Shown here: positions 1-23,509 of the stretch, piece by piece
Position numbering within the stretch: the first letter of the stretch is position 1
Layout: each line of letters opens with the position of its first letter
Assembly: GCA_046091055.1 (NCBI GenBank)
Contig: JBJTAX010000044.1
Location: 1-25,109 of the forward strand
Origin: Verrucomicrobiota bacterium
Lineage (GTDB): Bacteria > Verrucomicrobiota > Verrucomicrobiia > Opitutales > UBA953
Direction of reading: 5' to 3'
Length of the DNA: 25,109 nt
Notes under the pieces: generated by a model
Told to the model about the DNA's origin: nothing
The model's input: only the letters and a program-made list of their open reading frames with translations
Database searches by the model: none
Made by a program: the position numbers and the translations under genes

Positions 1-2478
1 GGCCAGCTCGGCGACCTCATCCTCAAGACCTACAAGCACTGCGGCCGCGAGGCTTCGATCCCCGTCCTCGACGCGCTCAAGGAGACCGGCTTCCGCATCG
101 CGACCAAGGCCGGCATCTCCATCGGCGTGAACGACATGATCAACCCGAAGGAGAAGGACGGCCTCGTCCGCGTAGCCACCCCCAAGGTCCGCGAAGTCCA
201 GCGCCAGAACGCATCCGGCACGAGCACCACCGACGAACGCCGCAACAAGGTCGTCGACACCTGGTCCGGCGCCACCGACGCCATCGCGCAGTCGGTGTAC
301 ACGACGCTTTCGCAGTCCGCGAAGGTGGCCGGCGCGAAGAAAGGCGACCCCCGCCATGCCCATCGCATGCTCATCAACCCGGTGTACGTCCTCATGGACT
401 CCGGCGCGCGCGGCAACAAGGCGCAGGTGAAGCAGCTCTGCGGCGCCCGCGGCCTGATGGCGAAGCCCTCCGGCGAGATCATCGAACGCCCGATCCTTTC
501 GTCCTTCCGCGAAGGCCTCTCGGTCCTCGAGTACTTCATCTCGACGCACGGCGCCCGCAAGGGCCTGTCCGACACCGCGCTGAAGACCGCCGACGCCGGT
601 TACATGACCCGCAAGCTCTGCGACGTGGCCATGGACGTCATCGTCACGGATTCCCGCGACGTCGCCCCCGGCTCCGAAGTCATCACGCTCGGCGAAGCCG
701 CCCTCGGGCGTCACCTGGCCGCCGACGTCCCGAATCCGTCCGGCGCCGCCAAGGCCTTGGCCAAGTCCGAGGCTCCGCTCACCGAAGAGCTCATCGCCAA
801 GCTGCGCGACGCCGGCGTCGACCGCGTCCACGTCCACATCCCGAACGGCGTGTGGAAGACCCCGATCTACGACGGCGACGAACTGCTGGTGTCGCTCTCC
901 GAGCGCATCGTCGGCCGCTGCCCGTCCGAGGACGTCGCCAATCCGCTCAATCCCGCCGAGATCATCGTGAAGGCCGGCGAACTCATCGACGAAGCCTCCG
1001 CGAAGCGCATCGAGACCGTCGGCCTCGACCGCGTCAAGGTGCTCTCGCCGCTCACGCACATGAACGTGAACGCGATCCCGCCCACCTCCTACGGCCTCGA
1101 TCCGTCGACCGGCCGGATGGTCGAGCGCGGCACCGCCGTCGGCATCATCGCCGCCCAGTCCATCGGCGAGCCGGGCACCCAGCTGACCATGCGCACGTTC
1201 CACATCGGCGGCGTCGCGCAGCTGAAGACCCCCGAGATCAAGTCCAAGGGCAAGGGCCTCGTCCAGTACGTGGACCTCACCACGGTCGCCGTCGGCGACA
1301 AGTTCATCGCCGTCAACGGCAACGGGTCGATCCGCCTCCTCAACGAGGCCGGTTCGCCGACCGAGGAATACCGCATCGTCGCCGGCTCCGTCGTCGGCGT
1401 CGAGGACGGCAAGCCCGTCGACAAGGGCGCGCTCATCGCCGCGTGGGATCCGAATTCCACCCCGATCATCGCCAACGGCGACGGCAAGATCCGCCTGGTC
1501 GACATGATCTCCGGAGTGACCTTCACCGAGGAACGCGATCCGTCCAACAACACGTTCTACAAGTCCGTCATCGAGCACTCCGACGAGCAGAACCCGCAGA
1601 TCCAGATCATCGCCGCCAACGGCAAGGAGGTCGGCTCCTTCTCGATCCCCGCCGGCGCCCGCGTCGAGGTGGACGAAGGCGACAAGGTCAGCCGCGGTTC
1701 CATCGTCGCCAAGATCCCCCGCCAGGCCGCCAAGACCCAGGACATCACCGCCGGCCTTCCGCGCATCTCCGAGCTCTTCGAGGCCCGTCCGCCCAAGGAC
1801 GCCGCCGAGATCGCCAAGATCGACGGCACGGTCCGCTTCGAGCCTTCCGTCCGCGGCAAGAAGCGCCTCGTGATCGCCGACTCCATCGGCCGCGAAGAGG
1901 AGCATCTCATCCCGCACGGGAAGCACATCATCGTCGCCGCCGGCGACAAGGTGAAGCAAGGCCAGGTGCTGACCGACGGCGCCGTCGATCCCCATGACAT
2001 CCTCGACATCCTCGGTCAGTCCAAGGTGCAGGATTACCTCATCACCGAGATCCAGAAGGTGTACCGGACCCAGGGCGTCGTCATCAACGACAAGCACATC
2101 GAGATCATCGTCTCGCGCATGCTCCGCAAGGTCCGTATCACCGAGCCGGGAGACTCCGACTACCTCTGGGGTGAGCAGGTGGACCGCACGCTCCTCGCCG
2201 AGAACAACCGCTCCATCAACGAACGCGGCGGCCAGATCGCCGAGTCCGAGCCGATCCTCCTGGGCATCACCAAGGCCTCCCTCGAGACCGAGTCGTTCAT
2301 CTCGGCCGCCTCCTTCCAGGAGACGACCCGAGTCCTGACCGACGCCGCCACGATGGCCAAGCGCGACAACCTGACCGGCTTCAAGGAGAACGTGATCATG
2401 GGTCACCTTGTCCCAGCCGGAACGGGATTACCTGCCTATCGCCGGATTCGCGTCTTCCAGACCCAGGTGGAAGCCTGA
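1..2478 (+). CDS. rpoC: DNA-directed RNA polymerase beta' subunit, 5'-truncated by the window edge
   Basis: Frame 1 is open from base 1 (GQLGDLILKTYKHCG...). It contains the hallmark motifs DSGARG, SFREGLSVLEYFISTHGARKGLSDTALKTADAGYMTRKL (bridge helix), AAQSIGEPGTQLTMRTFHIGG (trigger loop), DITAGLPRISELFEAR and SFISAASFQETTRVLT...GFKENVIMGHLVPAGTG. Confidence 0.99.
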   Translation, partial: GQLGDLILKTYKHCGREASIPVLDALKETGFRIATKAGISIGVNDMINPKEKDGLVRVATPKVREVQRQNASGTSTTDERRNKVVDTWSGATDAIAQSVYTTLSQSAKVAGAKKGDPRHAHRMLINPVYVLMDSGARGNKAQVKQLCGARGLMAKPSGEIIERPILSSFREGLSVLEYFISTHGARKGLSDTALKTADAGYMTRKLCDVAMDVIVTDSRDVAPGSEVITLGEAALGRHLAADVPNPSGAAKALAKSEAPLTEELIAKLRDAGVDRVHVHIPNGVWKTPIYDGDELLVSLSERIVGRCPSEDVANPLNPAEIIVKAGELIDEASAKRIETVGLDRVKVLSPLTHMNVNAIPPTSYGLDPSTGRMVERGTAVGIIAAQSIGEPGTQLTMRTFHIGGVAQLKTPEIKSKGKGLVQYVDLTTVAVGDKFIAVNGNGSIRLLNEAGSPTEEYRIVAGSVVGVEDGKPVDKGALIAAWDPNSTPIIANGDGKIRLVDMISGVTFTEERDPSNNTFYKSVIEHSDEQNPQIQIIAANGKEVGSFSIPAGARVEVDEGDKVSRGSIVAKIPRQAAKTQDITAGLPRISELFEARPPKDAAEIAKIDGTVRFEPSVRGKKRLVIADSIGREEEHLIPHGKHIIVAAGDKVKQGQVLTDGAVDPHDILDILGQSKVQDYLITEIQKVYRTQGVVINDKHIEIIVSRMLRKVRITEPGDSDYLWGEQVDRTLLAENNRSINERGGQIAESEPILLGITKASLETESFISAASFQETTRVLTDAATMAKRDNLTGFKENVIMGHLVPAGTGLPAYRRIRVFQTQVEA
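676..1044 (+). repeat. Diverged in-frame tandem duplication of a 54-aa segment within rpoC (copies 676-837 and 883-1044)
   Basis: Gapless manual alignment of EVITLGEAALGRHLAADVPNP...AGVDRVHVH with LLVSLSERIVGRCPSEDVANP...VGLDRVKVL gives 16/54 identities at an offset of 207 nt. Confidence 0.8.
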
Positions 2479-7880: not shown

Positions 7881-9680
7881 TCAACGGGCCGGCGGCGCGA
7901 GAGGGCAGCTCAGATAGACCCCTTGCGGATCGTTGAGGACGCGCAGCGAGCGGAGCCAGCGGGCGTTCGCCCGGAGGAAATCCACGGCGGGATCCGCGGT
8001 CGCCTTGGCGAACAACGGCCTCTCGTCTTCGTCGTCCGCGAGCAGCTGCTGGAGGAAGGATTCGCGGCCGGCGTGCAACGCGGGAACCTGCACCCACGCG
8101 GCTTCCTCGAGCCGGGCGAGGGTCTTGGCTTCGCGGAGGGCGTCGCGCAGCCCGCCGAACTTATCGACGAGCTTCAGGCCGCGCGCGTCTTCCCCCAGCC
8201 AGACCCGGCCTTGGGCGATGTCATGCACGTCGTCGCGCTTCAGGCCGCGTCCCGCGGCGACGATGCGCAGGAAATCCTCGTAGACCGCGTCGACCGAAGC
8301 CTGCACGATCGCCAGTTCCGCGGGCGTGGCCGGGCGGTGCTCGGCGAGGAGGTCGGCGTATTTCCCGGTCTTCACGCCGTCCGTCCCGAGGCGGATCTTG
8401 CTCGCGAGCTCCCCGTAGTTCAGGTGGAGCCCGAAGACGCCGATCGAGCCCGTGATCGTCGCCGGGTCGGCCATGATGACGTTGGCGCGGGCCGCGATGT
8501 AATAGCCGCCGCTGGCCGCGACGTCGCCCATCGAGACCACCACGGGGACGCCCTTCTTGCGCAGCAGGCCGACTTCACGGGCGACCACGTCGCTGGCGAA
8601 GGCGGAACCGCCGGGGCTGTTGACCCGCAGGACCACGGCCTTGAATTCTTCGTCGCCCCGGACCATGCGCAGGTCATGGGCCAGACGATCGCCGCCGGCC
8701 TCGTAGGCGCCGCCCCAGCCGTCCACGATGTCACCCTCGGCGTAGATCAGGGCGATCTTGCCGCCGCGCGAGGGCAGGGCGACCTTGCGCGCATACCGTT
8801 GGAGGCTGATCTTGCGGAAGGAGGTCCCGGTCTCGTCCGCGGCCGCGCCGGCCTTACGGACGCGGTCGACCAGTTCGTCGCGGTGCAGGGCGGCGTCGGC
8901 GAGCTTGAGTTCGACGGCCTTCCGCGCGGAGAAGACACCGGCGGAATCCACGGCGCGGGCGAGCGCCTCAGGGCTCAGCGACCGCGACTTGGCGACGTCG
9001 CCGAGGACGCGCTTCCACAGGCCCCCGTAGAGCGCATCAGCCTGCTCCCGGGCTTCGACGCTCATCGTCCCGCCGACGTAGGGCTCCACGGCCGACTTAT
9101 ATTTGCCGACCTTGGTCACCTGCACCCCGAGACCGAGCAGCCGGAGCGTCTCGCCGAAGTAGAAGTCGAAGGAGGCGAGCCCCTTGAACTCCAGTTCGCC
9201 GCTGGCGTGCACGTAGGCCTTGTCCGCGACGCTCGCGAGGAAGTATTCTCCCTGCGAGGCGTTCTCGAGCCAGGCGATGACGGGCTTGCCGCTGGCCTTG
9301 AAGGCGGCCAAGGCGCGGCGCAGTTCGGCCTTCTGCGCGATGCCGGCGTCGAGGCCGCCGCTCAGGAGGATGCCGGCGACCTGCTTGTCCTTGGCGGCGA
9401 GGTCGATGGCTTCCAGCGCCCGCAGGAGATCCAGCCGCGGGCCTTCGGCGCCGAAGAGCAGGGAGTCGAAGCCGGGCGAGCCGTGCTCGGGCGTGTCGTC
9501 GATGGCGAGACCGCCGATCACCAGCATCGATTTGGGCTTCATCGAAACCGCCGCGTGCCGGCCGTCGCCGGACGAACCGGCGATCGCCATGATGATCACG
9601 AGGAGGAGGGCGCCGCCGGCGAAGGCGGCCAGCAGGGTGCCGAAGGCGGAAGCAAGGACGGATTTGAGGAATTCTCTCAT
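7881..9680 (-). CDS. sppA: Signal peptide peptidase SppA, long (67K) form
   Basis: N-terminal TM helix and tandem S49 domains: KVGKYKSA (catalytic Lys), LRVNSPGGSAFAS (catalytic Ser), SMGDVAASGGYY, TITGSIGVFG, DIAQGRVWLG. Start re-picked at MREFLKS. Confidence 0.95.
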   Translation of the reverse strand: MREFLKSVLASAFGTLLAAFAGGALLLVIIMAIAGSSGDGRHAAVSMKPKSMLVIGGLAIDDTPEHGSPGFDSLLFGAEGPRLDLLRALEAIDLAAKDKQVAGILLSGGLDAGIAQKAELRRALAAFKASGKPVIAWLENASQGEYFLASVADKAYVHASGELEFKGLASFDFYFGETLRLLGLGVQVTKVGKYKSAVEPYVGGTMSVEAREQADALYGGLWKRVLGDVAKSRSLSPEALARAVDSAGVFSARKAVELKLADAALHRDELVDRVRKAGAAADETGTSFRKISLQRYARKVALPSRGGKIALIYAEGDIVDGWGGAYEAGGDRLAHDLRMVRGDEEFKAVVLRVNSPGGSAFASDVVAREVGLLRKKGVPVVVSMGDVAASGGYYIAARANVIMADPATITGSIGVFGLHLNYGELASKIRLGTDGVKTGKYADLLAEHRPATPAELAIVQASVDAVYEDFLRIVAAGRGLKRDDVHDIAQGRVWLGEDARGLKLVDKFGGLRDALREAKTLARLEEAAWVQVPALHAGRESFLQQLLADDEDERPLFAKATADPAVDFLRANARWLRSLRVLNDPQGVYLSCPLAPPAR

Positions 9681-9799
9681 GGGCGGTTCAGGGTGACGTC
9701 CAGATGATGCTTCCATGCTTTCTTTTCGCCAACCCAAAGCACGTTTTTCACATGCGGTTTCCTCTCGATGCCGCCCGTGCGCGGCCTATTTTCAAGGTC

Positions 9800-11248
9800 A
9801 TGTCAGAGCCTACGTCCACGGCCGGCGCCGCCACCTCCCGCAAGGCCCTGGCCATCAACCTTGACCGCTCGGCCTACGGCGCTTTCGCCGAGATCGGGGC
9901 CGGCCAGGAGGTGGTCCGTCATTTCTTCAAGGCGGGCGGCGCCTCCGGTACCGTGGCCAAGAGCATCTCGGCTTATGACATGCGCGTCAGCGACGCGATC
10001 TACGGCCACCCCCAGCGGTACGTCTCCCGCCAGCGTCTCGAGCAGATGCTCGACCACGAATACGGCCTGCTGGTCGACCGGCTGAAGGCCGAACGCGGCC
10101 CGGTCACCCGCTTCTTCGCGTTCGCCGACACGGTGGCGACCACCCCGCATGACGGCAAAGGACAGGGCCACTCGTGGATCGGCGTCCGTTTCCAGGACCA
10201 GCCGCAGGCGGAGCCGAGCGAGGTGATCCTCCACCTGAGGCTGTGGGACAAGGACGCGGGCCGCCAGCAGGACGCCCTCGGCGCCGTCGGGGTCAACCTC
10301 ATCCATGCCGCGCTCAACACCCGCGACAGCGTCGACAGCTTCCTCCTGGCCTTGGTGGACGAAGTCGGGGCGGGCCGCGTGGAGGTCGAATTCGCCCATT
10401 TCAGCGGGCCGGCCTTCGGCGCATTCGACAACCGTTCGGCCGCCTTGCGTCTGGTCCGCCTCGGCCTCACGGACGCCGTGCTTTTCGGCCCGGAGGGCGA
10501 TCCGCAGGTTCCGAGCGAATACTTCTACAAACGCTCGGTCCTGGTCGCCCGCGGCACCTTCCGCCCGGTCTCGCTGGTCAACGAGGACATGCTCGCCTGC
10601 GCGCTGCGCGCCATGCCCGACGGCGGCAAGGACGTGCTCGCCTTGTTCGAGATGTGCATCGGGTCCGACCCGCATCCGGAGGCCGAGCTCATCGACCGCA
10701 TCCGCCTCGTCGGCGCCATGCAGCATCCTTTGCTGGTCACCCGGCACCGCGGCTGGTACCGGCTCCCCGCCTATTTCCGCCTGCATACCACGGGGGGCAT
10801 CACGCTGGTCGCCGGAATGAACAACCTCGTCGACCTCTTCAACCCCGAGCATTACGTCCATCTCGAAGGCGGTGTCCTGGAGTCCTGCGGGCGCCTGTTC
10901 AAGGACGGCGTCCGCGTGATGGTCTACCCGATGCGGGGCGACCAGCTCCGCCGGCTCATCTTGGATCCGGTGGCGTGCAAGGTCTGTTTCCCTGACTCTT
11001 ACAGCGTGGCGGAGGATTCGGTCGTGACGGCTTCCGACATCCAGATGCGACCTTCGGTCGCCGGACTGTTCCAACACCTGCTGAACAATGGTTTCCTGGT
11101 GCCCATCGCGGGGGCGGACCCCCAGGCGATGGCCTGCCAGCCGCGCACGCTGGCCGAGCGCATCCGGAAGAACGACCCGGGCTGGGAGAAAGAAGTGCCC
11201 CCGTCGGTTGCGGTCGCGATCCGGAGCCTCAAGTTATGGGCTAGGTAG
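9800..11248 (+). CDS. Uncharacterised protein: N-terminal CinA/PncC-like fold plus C-terminal HUP/nucleotidyltransferase-like domain, 482 aa
   Basis: FAEIGAGQEVV...GGASGTVAKSISAYD aligns without gaps to the recalled PncC motif TAESCTGG...GSS...VTYSN. RGTFRPVSLVNEDM resembles a degenerate NTase GxFxPxHxGH motif, and the end WEKEVPPSVAVAIRSLKLW is NadD-like. No signal peptide. Domain calls are by motif recall only. Confidence 0.7.
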   Translation: MSEPTSTAGAATSRKALAINLDRSAYGAFAEIGAGQEVVRHFFKAGGASGTVAKSISAYDMRVSDAIYGHPQRYVSRQRLEQMLDHEYGLLVDRLKAERGPVTRFFAFADTVATTPHDGKGQGHSWIGVRFQDQPQAEPSEVILHLRLWDKDAGRQQDALGAVGVNLIHAALNTRDSVDSFLLALVDEVGAGRVEVEFAHFSGPAFGAFDNRSAALRLVRLGLTDAVLFGPEGDPQVPSEYFYKRSVLVARGTFRPVSLVNEDMLACALRAMPDGGKDVLALFEMCIGSDPHPEAELIDRIRLVGAMQHPLLVTRHRGWYRLPAYFRLHTTGGITLVAGMNNLVDLFNPEHYVHLEGGVLESCGRLFKDGVRVMVYPMRGDQLRRLILDPVACKVCFPDSYSVAEDSVVTASDIQMRPSVAGLFQHLLNNGFLVPIAGADPQAMACQPRTLAERIRKNDPGWEKEVPPSVAVAIRSLKLWAR

Positions 11249-11251
11249 CCC

Positions 11252-11848
11252 ATGCCCGTCACTTCACTTCCTCCCGCCCAGGACACCGAACTCGCCCTTT
11301 CGGTCGAGCGCGCCTATCGCGAATCGCTGGTGACGGACCGGCTCGGCGCGATCTGGTCCCTGATCCTCGCGAAATGCTTCCTCGCCCAATGGGCGATCCT
11401 GCGCTTCGCGATCCCGGTCGGCGGGCCGTTCTACGTCTGGACGCTGACGCTGGTGATGGGGGCCGTCGCCTCGTTTTATTACCTGCGCGCCCATCGGGTG
11501 AAGCTGCGGCTGCTGCCGGCGCATTTCCGGGTCGGCGCCGCCGTGCTCGCCGGACTGCTCGTCGCGCTGGGTTTCGTCGCTTACGCCACCTTCGCCCTCG
11601 GGGCGCTGCCCGCGCCCGTGGCCGCCGCCTTCGCCGCGATCCTCATGGGCTCATGGTCGCTGGCCCGCGCCGCTTTGCGGCGCGCCTGGCCGCCGTTCGC
11701 CGGCGCCTTGCTCTGGTGGGGGCTGGCGGGCACCGCCCTCCGCTCGCCCGCCGAGCAGGCGCTCCTCTGGCTGGGGCTGGGGATGCTCTGCGCGCAGGCT
11801 CTGCCGGGGTTCGCCGTGGCGGCCCGGCAGGCGAAACAGCGGGTCTGA
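11252..11848 (+). CDS. Hypothetical integral membrane protein (about 6 TM), 198 aa
   Basis: Fills the gap exactly between the upstream stop (3 nt away) and the convergent LysR stop. Several long hydrophobic stretches. Confidence 0.8.
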   Translation: MPVTSLPPAQDTELALSVERAYRESLVTDRLGAIWSLILAKCFLAQWAILRFAIPVGGPFYVWTLTLVMGAVASFYYLRAHRVKLRLLPAHFRVGAAVLAGLLVALGFVAYATFALGALPAPVAAAFAAILMGSWSLARAALRRAWPPFAGALLWWGLAGTALRSPAEQALLWLGLGMLCAQALPGFAVAARQAKQRV

Positions 11849-19802: not shown

Positions 19803-20800
19803 TTCGCCGCGTATTCGCGATAGTGGGCGATGACGATCCCGAGGATCTTCGCGCGGTCCTGGGGCAGGCGGCAGCCCTGCATGTTGAAGCCGGCCGCGAG
19901 CATGTGGCCGCCGCCGTTGAGCTTGGAGGCGCAGAGGTCGAGGCGGAGCTTCGGGTCGCGGCCACGCAGGCTGCCGCGGATGCCGTCGGCGCCTTCCTCC
20001 ATCAGCACGGCGACCTCGACGCCTTCGACGGAACGCGGGAATTCGACGAGGCCTTCCTTATCCTCCTTCGAAGTGCCGGTCGCGGCGTAATCGGCCTGCG
20101 TGAGTTCGCCCGAGCAGATCTTGCCGCCTTCGTTGAAGGCGATCGTGTTGAGGAAGCGCTTCGTGAGCTCGAGTTTCCCGCGGCTTTCCTGCTCGAAGAC
20201 GCGGGTGTTGGCCTCGGCGGGGTCGGCGACGCGCCTGACGAGTTCGGCGACGATACCGAAGACTTCGGCGGTCGTGCTGCGGTAGCAGAAACGTCCGGTG
20301 TCGGTCAGGATACCGAGGTGCAGGGCCTTGGCGGTGACGGCATCGACGGCCAGGCCCTGGGCGAGGGCGCCGGCGGCGAGGATGTGGCAGGTGGCGGCGG
20401 CCTCGCGGACGACGATGTTCGTGCGCGCGTAGTCCGGGTTCGAGGCGTGGTGGTCGATGTTGGCGAGGATGCCCGCCGGGAATTTGGCGAGCAGTTCCGT
20501 CCCGATGCGGGACGCATCGGCACAGTCGACCGTGACGGCGACACGGTCGGTCGCGTCATAATCGGCCCCTTTGACGAAGGCCACGCCCTCGGCGTAGGGG
20601 ACGAGGTTCGGGGGGATCCGATCTCGGTTCACGCAGAGGGCGTCGACGTCCTCGGCCAGCAGCATCCGGCAGAGCGCGACCTGGGAGCCGATGCAGTCGC
20701 CATCTGGGCGCATATGGCCCAATACGGCCACTTTCCTCCCTTTGAGGCCCTTGACGAGGCCTCGGAGGGCCTCGCCCGCCGCTTGCATGCTGATACCCAT
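19799..20800 (-). CDS. nrnA: DHH/DHHA1 phosphoesterase NrnA (nanoRNase / pAp phosphatase), about 333 aa
   Basis: [33 protein letters not shown] and [13 protein letters not shown] overlap with truB. The start could be 20800 or 20788. Confidence 0.92.
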
Positions 20801-20880
20801 GGTCTTGGCGATGAACAAACAGGCGGGTTCCGCCGCTGGCAAAGGCAAAAGGCGGGGTTATCCCCGACTTCGGGGAACGC

Positions 20881-20908
20881 TTGAACCTCTCCGCGGTTCG
20901 GGCATAGT
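20881..20908 (+). promoter_or_regulatory. Possible sigma70-type promoter for clpC (TTGAAC-16-CATAGT)
   Basis: Motif match by eye, 48 nt upstream of the clpC ATG. Weak evidence. Confidence 0.3.
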
Positions 20909-20956: not shown

Positions 20957-23509
20957 ATGGATAAGGACAAAAACAGCAATTTCACTCCCCGCGCCCGCAA
21001 GGTCGTGGAACTGGCCCGGGCGGAAGCCCGCCGGTTCAACCACAACTACGTCGGCACGGAGCACATCCTGCTCGGGCTCATCAAGCTCGGCGAGGGCGTC
21101 GCGGTCAACGTCCTCGGCCGCATGGGCCTCGACCTGAAGATTGTCCGCTCCGCCGTCGAGAAACAGGTCGGTCCCGGCCCCGAAGAAGCCAAGGCGCCCG
21201 ACACGATTCCGCTCACGCCTCGCGTCCAGAAGGTCATGGCGCACGCCGTCACCGAAGCCCGCGCCCTCGGGCATGCCTACGTCGGCACGGAGCACATCCT
21301 GCTCGGTCTTCTCAAGGAAGGGGAGGGCGTCGCCGCCCGCGTCCTGCAGCAGCTCGACGTCGACCTCGAACGCTGCCGAAAGGAGATCCTCGCCGATATC
21401 GACCCCTCCGCCGCCGACGAGGCCGAGAAGAAAGACGGCGACACGCCGCCCCCGTCTGAAGATTCCTCGGACGACGCGCCGCCGCCTTCCCGTCGCTCCT
21501 CCTCCGAAGAGGGTGCCCGCCCAGGCCGCGGCGAACGTCTCTCGCTCCTTAAGACCTTCGGTCGCGACCTCACCGAGCTCGCCAAGGCCGGCGAACTCGA
21601 CCCGGTCATCGGCCGTAAGGAAGAGATCCGTCGCGTGGTGCAGATCCTCTGCCGCCGCACGAAGAACAATCCGGTCCTCATCGGCGAAGCCGGCGTGGGC
21701 AAGACCGCCATCGTCGAAGGCCTCGCCCAGGAGATCGCCTCCGGCGTCGTGCCGGAGATCCTGCTCGACCGCAAGGTCATCACGCTCGACCTCGCCTTGA
21801 TGGTCGCCGGGACGAAATACCGCGGCCAGTTCGAAGAGCGCATCAAGGGCATCATGGACGAGATCAAGCGCGCCAAGAACGTCATCCTGTTCATCGACGA
21901 GATGCACACGATCGTCGGCGCCGGCGCCGCCGAAGGCGCGATGGACGCCTCGAACATCCTCAAGCCGGCCTTGTCGCGCGGCGAGATCCAGTGCGTCGGC
22001 GCCACCACGCTCTCGGAATATCGCAAGCACATCGAGAAGGACGCCGCCCTCGAGCGCCGCTTCCAGTCCGTCAAGGTCGACGACCCGACGCCGGAGGACG
22101 CCGTGCTCATACTGCGCGGCATCCGCGCGAAATACGAGGAGCACCACAAGTGCGAGTACACCGACGCCGCCATCGAGGCCGCGGTCCGTCTCTCGCATCG
22201 TTACATCACCGCCCGCCACCTGCCTGACAAGGCCATCGACGTCATGGACGAGGCCGGCGCCCGCGCCCGCATCCGTTCCCTGAACCTGCCCCCGGAGATC
22301 GACTCGGTCCAGGCCGAGGTCGACAAGGTCGTGCAGCAGAAGGAGGAGGCTTCCCGCCACCAGCAGTTCGAGGAGGCCGCCGGCCTCCGGGACACCGAGA
22401 AGAAGCTCCGCGCGAAGCGCGAGAAGATGCTCGAGGAGTGGCGCAAGAAGCGCGACGAGAAGCGCATCGTCGTCGGCGAGGAGGAGATGCTCCACATCGT
22501 CGCCGACTGGACGGGCGTGCCCCTCAACCGTCTCGAGAAGAAGGAGACCAAGAAGCTCCTCGAGCTCGAGAAGGACCTGCAGACGGCCGTCATCGGCCAG
22601 GACCGCGCCTGCGAGGTCGTGGCCCGCGCCCTCCGGCGCTCCCGCGCCGACCTCAAGGATCCGCGCCGCCCGATCGGATCCTTCCTCTTCCTCGGCCCCA
22701 CCGGCGTCGGCAAGACGCTCCTGGCCCGCTCCCTGGCCGAACGCATGTTCGGCGAGAAGGACGCGGTCATCCAGATCGACATGTCCGAGTACATGGAGAA
22801 GTTCACGGTCTCACGCCTGATCGGCTCGCCGCCCGGCTACGTGGGCCACGACGAAGGCGGCCAGCTCACCGAGGCGGTCCGCCGCAAGCCCTATTCCGTC
22901 GTGCTCTTCGACGAGATCGAGAAGGCCCACCCGGACGTCATCCAGCTCCTCCTGCAGGCCCTGGAGGACGGTCGCCTGACCGACTCGCTCGGCCGCGTCG
23001 TCGACTTCCGCAACACGATCATCATCCTGACCTCCAACGTCGGGGCCGACGTGCTGCAGCGCAACAACTCCGTCGGCTTCGACGTCGGCGTGGACTCCAC
23101 GCGCGACTACGAGAAGCTCAAGGAGCGCATCATGGACGAGACCAAGCGAGCCTTCAAGCCCGAGTTCCTCAACCGTCTGACGGATATCGTCATCTTCCAG
23201 CAGCTTGCGAAGGTCCACATGACCAAGATCGTCGACATCGAGGTCGACAAGGTCGCCAAGCGCCTCCTCGAGCTCGGCGTGAAGCTCGTGGTCAACGAAG
23301 CCGCCCGCGGCTACTTGGTCGACAACGGCTGGGACGAGAAATACGGCGCCCGCCCGCTCCGCCGCGCGGTCGAACGTCTCCTCGAGGATCCGCTGGCCGA
23401 AGCCATCCTGCGCGACGACTACAATAAGGAGGAGCCGGTCATCGTCTCGGTCGGCGAGAAGGGCCTCGTCTTCACGCAGAAGAAGAGTGGTGCCGACACC
23501 GGCGCCTAA
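20957..23509 (+). CDS. clpC: ATP-dependent Clp protease ATPase subunit ClpC, 850 aa
   Basis: Two Clp_N repeats ([11 protein letters not shown] twice), AAA1 GEAGVGKT / FIDEMH, a UVR-like M domain ([11 protein letters not shown]), AAA2 GPTGVGKT / LFDEIEKAH, and a ClpP-docking loop SVGF. Confidence 0.95.

Follow-up and report, generated by a model that had tools for sequence, protein, structure and literature searches.

Analysed here is a stretch of 25,109 nucleotides (nt), hereafter the window, that comprises positions 1 to 25,109 of contig JBJTAX010000044.1 (assembly GCA_046091055.1) of a Verrucomicrobiota bacterium placed by GTDB in the Opitutales, UBA953. It opens with the 3' part of rpoC, the gene that encodes RNA polymerase (RNAP) subunit beta'; on the + strand, frame 1 is open from nt 1 as far as the stop codon at 2476-2478 and yields the C-terminal 825 amino acids (aa) of beta', to which the residue numbers below refer. 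Between the bridge helix and the trigger loop this subunit carries an insert in which a small alpha/beta module some 55 aa long, BBM2 (beta-beta' module 2), occurs for a second time; every bacterial beta' subunit has one resident copy. It is very probable that the second BBM2 arose when part of rpoC was duplicated in an ancestor shared by two sister Opitutales genera, after their split from the rest of the family, and that it has since been kept under purifying selection as a surface module.

The relationship between the two copies is apparent within the window itself. Copy 1 (aa 227-281) aligns to copy 2 (aa 296-350) without gaps at an offset of 69 aa, with 17 of 55 residues identical, and no other offset from 60 to 79 aa gives more than 9 identities. 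The Smith-Waterman self-score is 74, against 25.4 +/- 4.9 with a maximum of 53 in 2000 shuffles (z about 10), and BLASTP of copy 1 against copy 2 returns E 2e-7. The initial annotation of this DNA had described 16 identities in 54 positions at the same offset, a description that was correct within one residue. In DNA the copies share 54.5% identity, which indicates that the duplication is old.

Comparison with relatives identifies the newcomer. Copy 2 together with the hairpin that precedes it (NGVWKTPIYDGDEL) aligns to the single module of other Opitutales at 66-79% identity, whereas aa 221-281 have no counterpart in relatives, in which a short 'GNR' stands at this place; the upstream copy is therefore the new one. 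The spacing between bridge helix and trigger loop, taken from the motif DVAMD to the motif GEPGTQ, amounts to 180-182 aa in carriers of the insert and to 121-126 aa in non-carriers, with 130 aa in one genome. The window has 181 aa where its closest insert-free relatives have 123 aa, a net gain of 58 aa, so that the 65-70 extra residues proposed earlier were too many. The proposal of a tandem duplication stands as regards duplication and falls as regards strict tandem arrangement: a 14-aa hairpin separates the copies, which consequently do not lie head to tail, and the gain of 58 aa differs from the period of 69 aa. That E. coli possesses a single copy is confirmed, its beta' having one module at residues 834-883.

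Sequence profiles and predicted fold agree that the insert is BBM2, a module defined by Iyer, Koonin and Aravind (2004), with inserts catalogued by Lane and Darst (2010), as these works are cited in PMC2939025 and bioRxiv 10.1101/2022.01.17.476619. A profile of 22 inserts matches the resident-module profile in hhalign at 97.7% (E 2e-12, 57 columns). Run against the sequences of PDB entries, the profile of the inserts retrieves the resident beta' module of Xanthomonas (6j9e_D 830-885, E 1e-6) and beta' of Francisella and cyanobacteria, including 6wmp_D 824-881 (beta' modules at E 1e-6 to 1e-4); its match to E. coli beta' 834-883 is weak (E 0.3). It further reaches the beta subunit, where it matches BBM2b, the second repeat of beta-i4, in Xanthomonas (6j9e_C 296-339, E 1.2e-3) and two more beta chains (7xya_C and 7f0r_C, E about 0.009). 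The insert thus has the sequence profile that is common to the beta-i4 and beta' copies of BBM2.

The small alpha/beta fold of E. coli beta-i4 (PDB 3LTI) is likewise recovered in the predicted structure. An AlphaFold2 model built from insert sequences only has a predicted local distance difference test (pLDDT) score of 80, and Foldseek superposes it on 3lti with a root-mean-square deviation (rmsd) of 1.6 A over 51 aa and a TM of 0.66, on E. coli beta chains and beta-i4 with rmsd values of 1.6-1.9 A (51 aa), and on the chains of beta' with values of 1.1-1.3 A (45 aa). VIA-align relates the same model to the E. coli lobe/i4 (7egs_A 215-339) at Z 7.7 and to cyanobacterial beta' 220-293 at Z 7.5. 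In a context model of aa 164-418 (255 aa), both copies are predicted at pLDDT 75-92 with the same order of strands and helices, and the hairpin strands fall at model residues 121-123, 126-128 and 131-134; the bridge helix and the trigger loop, being out of context, have low confidence, and Foldseek with this larger model returns only whole beta' chains and is uninformative on the insert. A modelling check on whether two copies of the small domain form had been suggested at the outset; in the predicted structures both copies are confidently modelled and copy 1 superposes on RNAP structures.

The distribution of the insert is sharply bounded. It occurs in 39 of 39 genomes of the window's own genus (g1) and in 11 of 11 of genus g21 of the same family. 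Within that family it was found in 0 of 19 genomes of g18, in the single genome of g19 not at all, and in 0 of the 8 genomes of g20 with a match; none of about 38 genomes from other Opitutales families and none of about 125 from other classes of Verrucomicrobiota carry it. A 227-aa query taken from the window finds an unbroken match in g1 and g21 only; elsewhere the match is split into query residues 1-47 and 109-227. An alignment with RpoC across Verrucomicrobiota, proposed beforehand as a check, accordingly confines the insert to these two genera, and the view of an old duplication that is fixed, specific to one lineage and usable as a marker of the clade is borne out by 50 of 50 sampled genomes of the two sister genera against 0 of about 190 other Verrucomicrobiota. 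The carriers are freshwater planktonic Opitutales, among them 'Opitutia bacterium UBA953', 'UBA7397', 'Opitutae bacterium BS6/BS10' and lake and river bins. On a beta' tree built without the insert columns all of them fall into one clade (SH-aLRT 100), so that one change is enough and a single gain suffices. A search of 1.84 billion representative proteins with the insert profile gives one cluster at E<1e-30, that of the insert clade. Restricted to a monophyletic subset, absent in relatives, in frame and placed between shared flanks, of which the bridge-helix columns are invariant across the phylum in our alignments, the insert is a lineage-specific insertion in the sense of Lane and Darst.

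Two proteins (P0062 and P0076; 100% query coverage, 45% identity) that share 'VTDDTV' with the sister genus were considered as an insert-free sister lineage or as bearers of a diverged insert, and were rejected, since both lack the insert (spacing 126 aa) and fall inside the g20 group on the tree. An apparent rpoB-rpoC fusion in g21 (G069, G081, G053; L033, L034, L035) was also dismissed. Its frames of 2898 and 1823 aa are stop-free readings from GC-rich rpoB, the upstream parts being out-of-frame and Arg/Pro-rich, and the true RpoC start is MIQPEH....

The window stems from a fragmented metagenome-assembled genome (MAG) of 271 contigs and 76% completeness, in which rpoC is cut where its 5' end runs off the contig, and this could raise the suspicion of an artefact of assembly or gene calling. 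The same insert, in frame and much substituted, is however conserved in over 50 MAGs that come from independent projects and from different lakes and rivers, some of them on contigs of 0.3-0.9 Mb, and we therefore regard an artefact as scarcely conceivable. In the beta' of the window Pfam recognizes RNA_pol_Rpb1_5 (E 1.5e-63), Rpb1_4 and Rpb1_3, and a sequence of the SBHM type (sandwich-barrel hybrid motif; Pfam RPOC_hybrid) follows the trigger loop; complete RpoC orthologues within the genus measure 1445-1457 aa. The coordinates of the relevant features are collected in Table 1.

Table 1. Features of the rpoC fragment around the second BBM2 module (nt positions in the window).
Feature	Position	Strand	Remarks
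3' part of rpoC (RNA polymerase beta')	1..2478	+	last 825 codons and stop
Bridge-helix region, upstream flank of insert	532..636	+	aa 178-212; end ...YMTRKLCDVAMD = aa 201-212
Asp220, first Zn2 ligand position (E. coli beta' Cys814), directly before insert	658..660	+	
Lineage-specific insert	661..843	+	aa 221-281; 61 aa replacing ancestral 'GNR', net +58 aa
Copy 1, new BBM2 module	679..843	+	aa 227-281
Conserved beta-hairpin between copies	844..885	+	NGVWKTPIYDGDEL; aa 282-295; present in relatives as well
Copy 2, resident BBM2 module	886..1050	+	aa 296-350; positional orthologue of E. coli beta' 834-883
Former C-terminal zinc knuckle, cysteine-free	1051..1098	+	His353, Pro360, Ser363
Trigger-loop start, invariant downstream flank	1165..1212	+	GEPGTQLTMRTFHIGG; aa 389-404; GEPGTQ from aa 389

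Addition of BBM2 modules to the large subunits of RNAP has been documented previously. The beta-i4 insert of E. coli, also called SI1, consists of two BBM2 and was solved as PDB 3LTI, and beta-i4 comprises from one to six tandem BBM2 repeats (PMC2939025); beta-i5 of Firmicutes has two BBM2 (bioRxiv 10.1101/2022.01.17.476619). For beta', two BBM2 insertions were proposed by Iyer et al., according to the account of that work in PMC1586193. The Opitutales insert resembles beta-i4 and beta-i5 in that the module is recognized by profile and predicted fold and in that copies of a small module have enlarged a large subunit at a surface loop in a lineage-restricted manner. It differs from them in its location in beta', where a single extra copy stands beside the universal beta' BBM2 in the part of the enzyme termed the shelf, and in its limitation to two uncultured genera. 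Another lineage-specific repeated small domain of the same stretch of beta' is SI3 (beta'i6) of E. coli, which has roles in pausing and in TraR/DksA action (PMC6970531); unlike the module described here, it has the SBHM fold and lies inside the trigger loop.

Closer parallels in other lineages emerged from a wide search with the insert profile. One of them is Abditibacteriota. Of 38 top hits (P0279-P0316, about 1575-1610 aa), those with a named source all belong to this phylum, and in 37 of the 37 measurable ones the bridge helix and the trigger loop are 180-185 aa apart, compared with 126 aa. As in Opitutales, there is one extra module, of about 57 aa, between these two elements, and this BBM2-like module is apparently phylum-wide. 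In contrast to Opitutales, it follows the hairpin and directly precedes the resident module, in strict tandem, and the four cysteines of zinc site II (Cys4) are intact; with only 9 bits on the Opitutales insert profile, it represents an independent event. In Selenomonadaceae, of the phylum Bacillota, the insertion point is the same as in Opitutales, immediately behind the first zinc ligand and ahead of the hairpin, and the first extra module matches the BBM2 profile (18.8 bits, independent E-value 7e-7); here, however, two extra BBM2-like modules (about 150 aa) are present and the Cys4 is again intact. Their spacing is mostly 268-290 aa and ranges overall from 268 to 623 aa, the values of 466-623 aa belonging to RpoC with long, near-perfect and recent tandem arrays of the resident module that follow it (extra modules or arrays occur in P0206, P0223, P0241, P0250 and P0262). 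The fragment P0128 has a module before the hairpin, as in Opitutales, and keeps at least the first two C-terminal cysteines of the zinc site; its tail looks frameshifted. In P0126, an RpoC of 1779 aa, four BBM2 copies stand after the trigger-loop region. Further matches of the insert profile (P0122-P0125 and P0129-P0131) have several repeats and no Pfam match, and P0122 resembles the C-terminal BBM2 array of P0126.

By which route could the second copy have been acquired? The simplest would be a tandem duplication of a 69-aa unit, made up of hairpin and module, with subsequent loss of the first hairpin (about 11 aa), which would explain both the offset of 69 aa and the net gain of 58 aa. The offset is equal to the ancestral unit of hairpin and module, from DGIWK to ...MSP, the first hairpin of which is gone, and the junction ...HIP|NGVWK is the one expected from tandem duplication of such a unit. 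The new module has been spliced into the loop that formerly held the first ligand of zinc site II. The arrangement fits an alternative history, the displaced insertion of one module, as well as duplication of 69 aa and deletion of 11 aa. When five genomes of the family are searched with the insert profile, the insert and the adjoining resident module are the only matches, and copy 1 has a DV-x-NP motif in common with the resident modules of Opitutales.

The module might instead have come from outside, through recombination in which a foreign rpoC, a foreign rpoB or some other gene with a BBM2 was the partner. Some resident modules of other lineages reach, on the insert profile, 39.9 (P0133), 39.7 (P0136) and 38.9 bits (P0139) against 30-36 bits for the adjacent copy, and the extra module of Abditibacteriota shares the short motifs LGRHLA and RV.VH.P with copy 1. 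This module, however, attains no more than the 9 bits given above, and nothing outside the clade comes near the insert itself, as the single cluster at E<1e-30 attests. Copy 1, moreover, shares DV-x-NP with the resident modules of Opitutales and scores better on their hidden Markov model (HMM), the flanking rpoC displays no mosaic break, and an adjacent source is the most economical one. A foreign donor thus appears highly unlikely.

Several observations nevertheless count against the history of the module that we propose. The copies are not strictly adjacent, so that the tandem route requires a second event, the deletion. Similarity does not fix the donor, for on the insert profile several unrelated lineages have resident modules at 35-40 bits, equal to or above the 30-36 bits of the adjacent copy, and the mean of 30.3 bits of the insert sequences on the Opitutales resident-module HMM against 24.1 bits on that of other phyla is a weak comparison, as the two HMMs differ in diversity. 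The Foldseek E-values are only 0.01-0.06, obtained with a short query (a 66-aa model), and in VIA-align MoeA domains outscore RNAP (Z 9.9), from which it follows that the fold extends beyond RNAP. The packing of copy 1 on the resident module and its position on the enzyme are deduced from E. coli numbering. Economy is the main reason for preferring a duplication within the gene.

The adjacency of the insert to zinc site II invites another explanation. The window lacks the Cys4 of this site, having Asp220, His353, Pro360 and Ser363 at the positions of E. coli C814, C888, C895 and C898. The initial annotation had suggested that the module is a stabiliser replacing the lost zinc site, and such compensation for a structural loss would be in keeping with an insert that adjoins the first-ligand position in a clade without all four cysteines. 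The three C-terminal cysteines are, however, absent in every sampled Opitutales genome, including about 65 that have no insert, and the extra modules of Abditibacteriota and Selenomonadaceae lie in the same region with the Cys4 intact. The first cysteine is kept in one Opitutales family (f19), and all four are found in three genomes of other Verrucomicrobiota families; the context of the first ligand reads ...EDDCG... in f19 and the other sampled Verrucomicrobiota and ...SRD|VAP... in the insert clade, and the C-terminal knuckle of other Verrucomicrobiota classes reads ...LTCES..GVC..CYG. Because the cysteines are missing with or without the insert, the loss of zinc is order-wide, older than the insert and tolerated without the module. 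The suggestion of a replacement stabiliser therefore fails, and compensation must be considered very improbable indeed. One may conjecture that the loss of the zinc knuckle made the loop permissive for an insertion, given that the insert lies directly after the first ligand position.

Selection on the module was assessed by the ratio of nonsynonymous to synonymous substitution rates (dN/dS) computed among seven genus members. The ratio is 0.127 for copy 1 and 0.132 for copy 2, with 0.079 for the hairpin, 0.069 for the trigger-loop side and 0.013 for the bridge helix. Across both genera 14 insert positions are invariant, including G-R-H and the helix motif L-R-D-A-G. Together these values and positions indicate that the new module is constrained like the old one. 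Neutral accretion is a serious rival, which we consider possible if doubtful: the module would be functionless itself and retained since its unfolding or imprecise deletion harms an essential subunit. A dN/dS of 0.13 matches the resident module and marks a constraint looser by a factor of ten than on the bridge helix; insert-free relatives, including sister genera of the same family, thrive; and the highly variable number of extra BBM2 in Selenomonadaceae (268 to 623 aa) suggests that the site tolerates additions. Less easily accommodated by neutral accretion are the 14 positions (LRDAG, GRH) that stay invariant across genera about 20% apart in ClpC, and the fact that no loss was seen in 50 genomes, many of them streamlined (1.3-2.7 Mb), where a useless stretch of 58 aa would be expected to shrink.

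If the module does have a role, its location offers some indication of what this could be. The E. coli shelf is composed of beta' 787-931, 1135-1150 and 1216-1317; it is entered directly from the bridge helix, borders the downstream DNA channel, contacts SI3 and rotates on TraR binding (PMC6970531). The resident BBM2 lies within this shelf, which makes the Opitutales insert a second small domain of it. Copy 1 would fold by itself and protrude from the enzyme, and it is most likely packed beside the resident module as a surface decoration, much as the two BBM2 of beta-i4 are arranged in one cylinder. It would have no part in catalysis and might act on this mobile region of RNAP by docking other molecules or by stiffening it, a role that we infer. 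The initial annotation's suggestion of a binding surface for factors is likewise conjectural.

The remainder of beta' was inspected for changes accompanying the insert. In 373 columns there are 30 clade-diagnostic substitutions, most of them conservative; they are scattered, and aa 500-600 (the SI3 region) hold slightly more than their share. These columns give no clear sign of co-adaptation in the form of diagnostic substitutions clustered near the insert. Three-point distances were taken from trees of the same 15 genomes, with the insert excluded from beta' and with ClpC, encoded at window positions 20957-23509, as the sole comparator. In beta' the lineage branch to the window's genus measures 0.78 substitutions per site, and in ClpC 0.35. 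For the remaining two branches beta' and ClpC give similar lengths (0.23 vs 0.20 and 0.38 vs 0.32), and likewise for the distance between g1 and g21 (0.45 in beta' and 0.40 in ClpC); under a mixture model the stem to the insert clade is long in beta' (0.66-0.73). It follows that the stem on which the insert appeared was one of faster change in beta', and the comparison, made with a single other protein, suggests a beta'-specific burst of change on that stem.

A bolder interpretation would unite this burst with the parallels in other phyla. The shelf loop that holds the first zinc ligand and the hairpin would then be a recurrent hot-spot for BBM2, and the modules would be non-neutral, forming on the mobile shelf a new regulatory docking surface by which each lineage adjusts its pausing or its binding of factors. 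Its base is the independent addition of BBM2 modules by at least three unrelated lineages, namely the Opitutales clade, Abditibacteriota and Selenomonadaceae. Taken as a whole, we think this interpretation unlikely.

Some further observations may be recorded. The BBM2 model (m83a32dc97c6e) superposes best on a domain of MoeA/gephyrin E (Z 9.9 and 8.5) and also matches Orn/Lys/Arg decarboxylases in their C-terminal domain (Z 5-7), which, as a comparison of a predicted structure, may reflect a distant fold relationship of BBM2 outside RNAP. The protein P0133 (2046 aa, found in Logan assemblies on 12 contigs) has the Rpb2 and Rpb1 Pfam domains in one chain and looks like a real fused and reduced beta-beta'; its resident module is likewise without the zinc cysteines. 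In the rest of the window, four sizeable open reading frames on the + strand (7923-9707, 9704-11248, 11252-11848 and 19823-20884) have no Pfam match at E<=1e-5; among their neighbours are a LysR regulator, a RecN-like protein, an SDR, a Mur ligase, RibF and ClpC.

The insert provides an indel of 58 aa in a universal gene and hence an easily scored marker uniting two GTDB genera of abundant freshwater Opitutales. Since the organisms are uncultured, and since accretion of modules is a known mode of RNAP growth that leaves the understanding of the enzyme unchanged, its practical weight is modest. The loss of beta' zinc site II emerges as a trait of the whole order Opitutales that is unrelated to the insert. 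Data from these genera add a further case of BBM2 accretion within beta' itself, beside the resident copy, and together with Abditibacteriota and Selenomonadaceae they show that the region just after the bridge helix takes BBM2 modules repeatedly.

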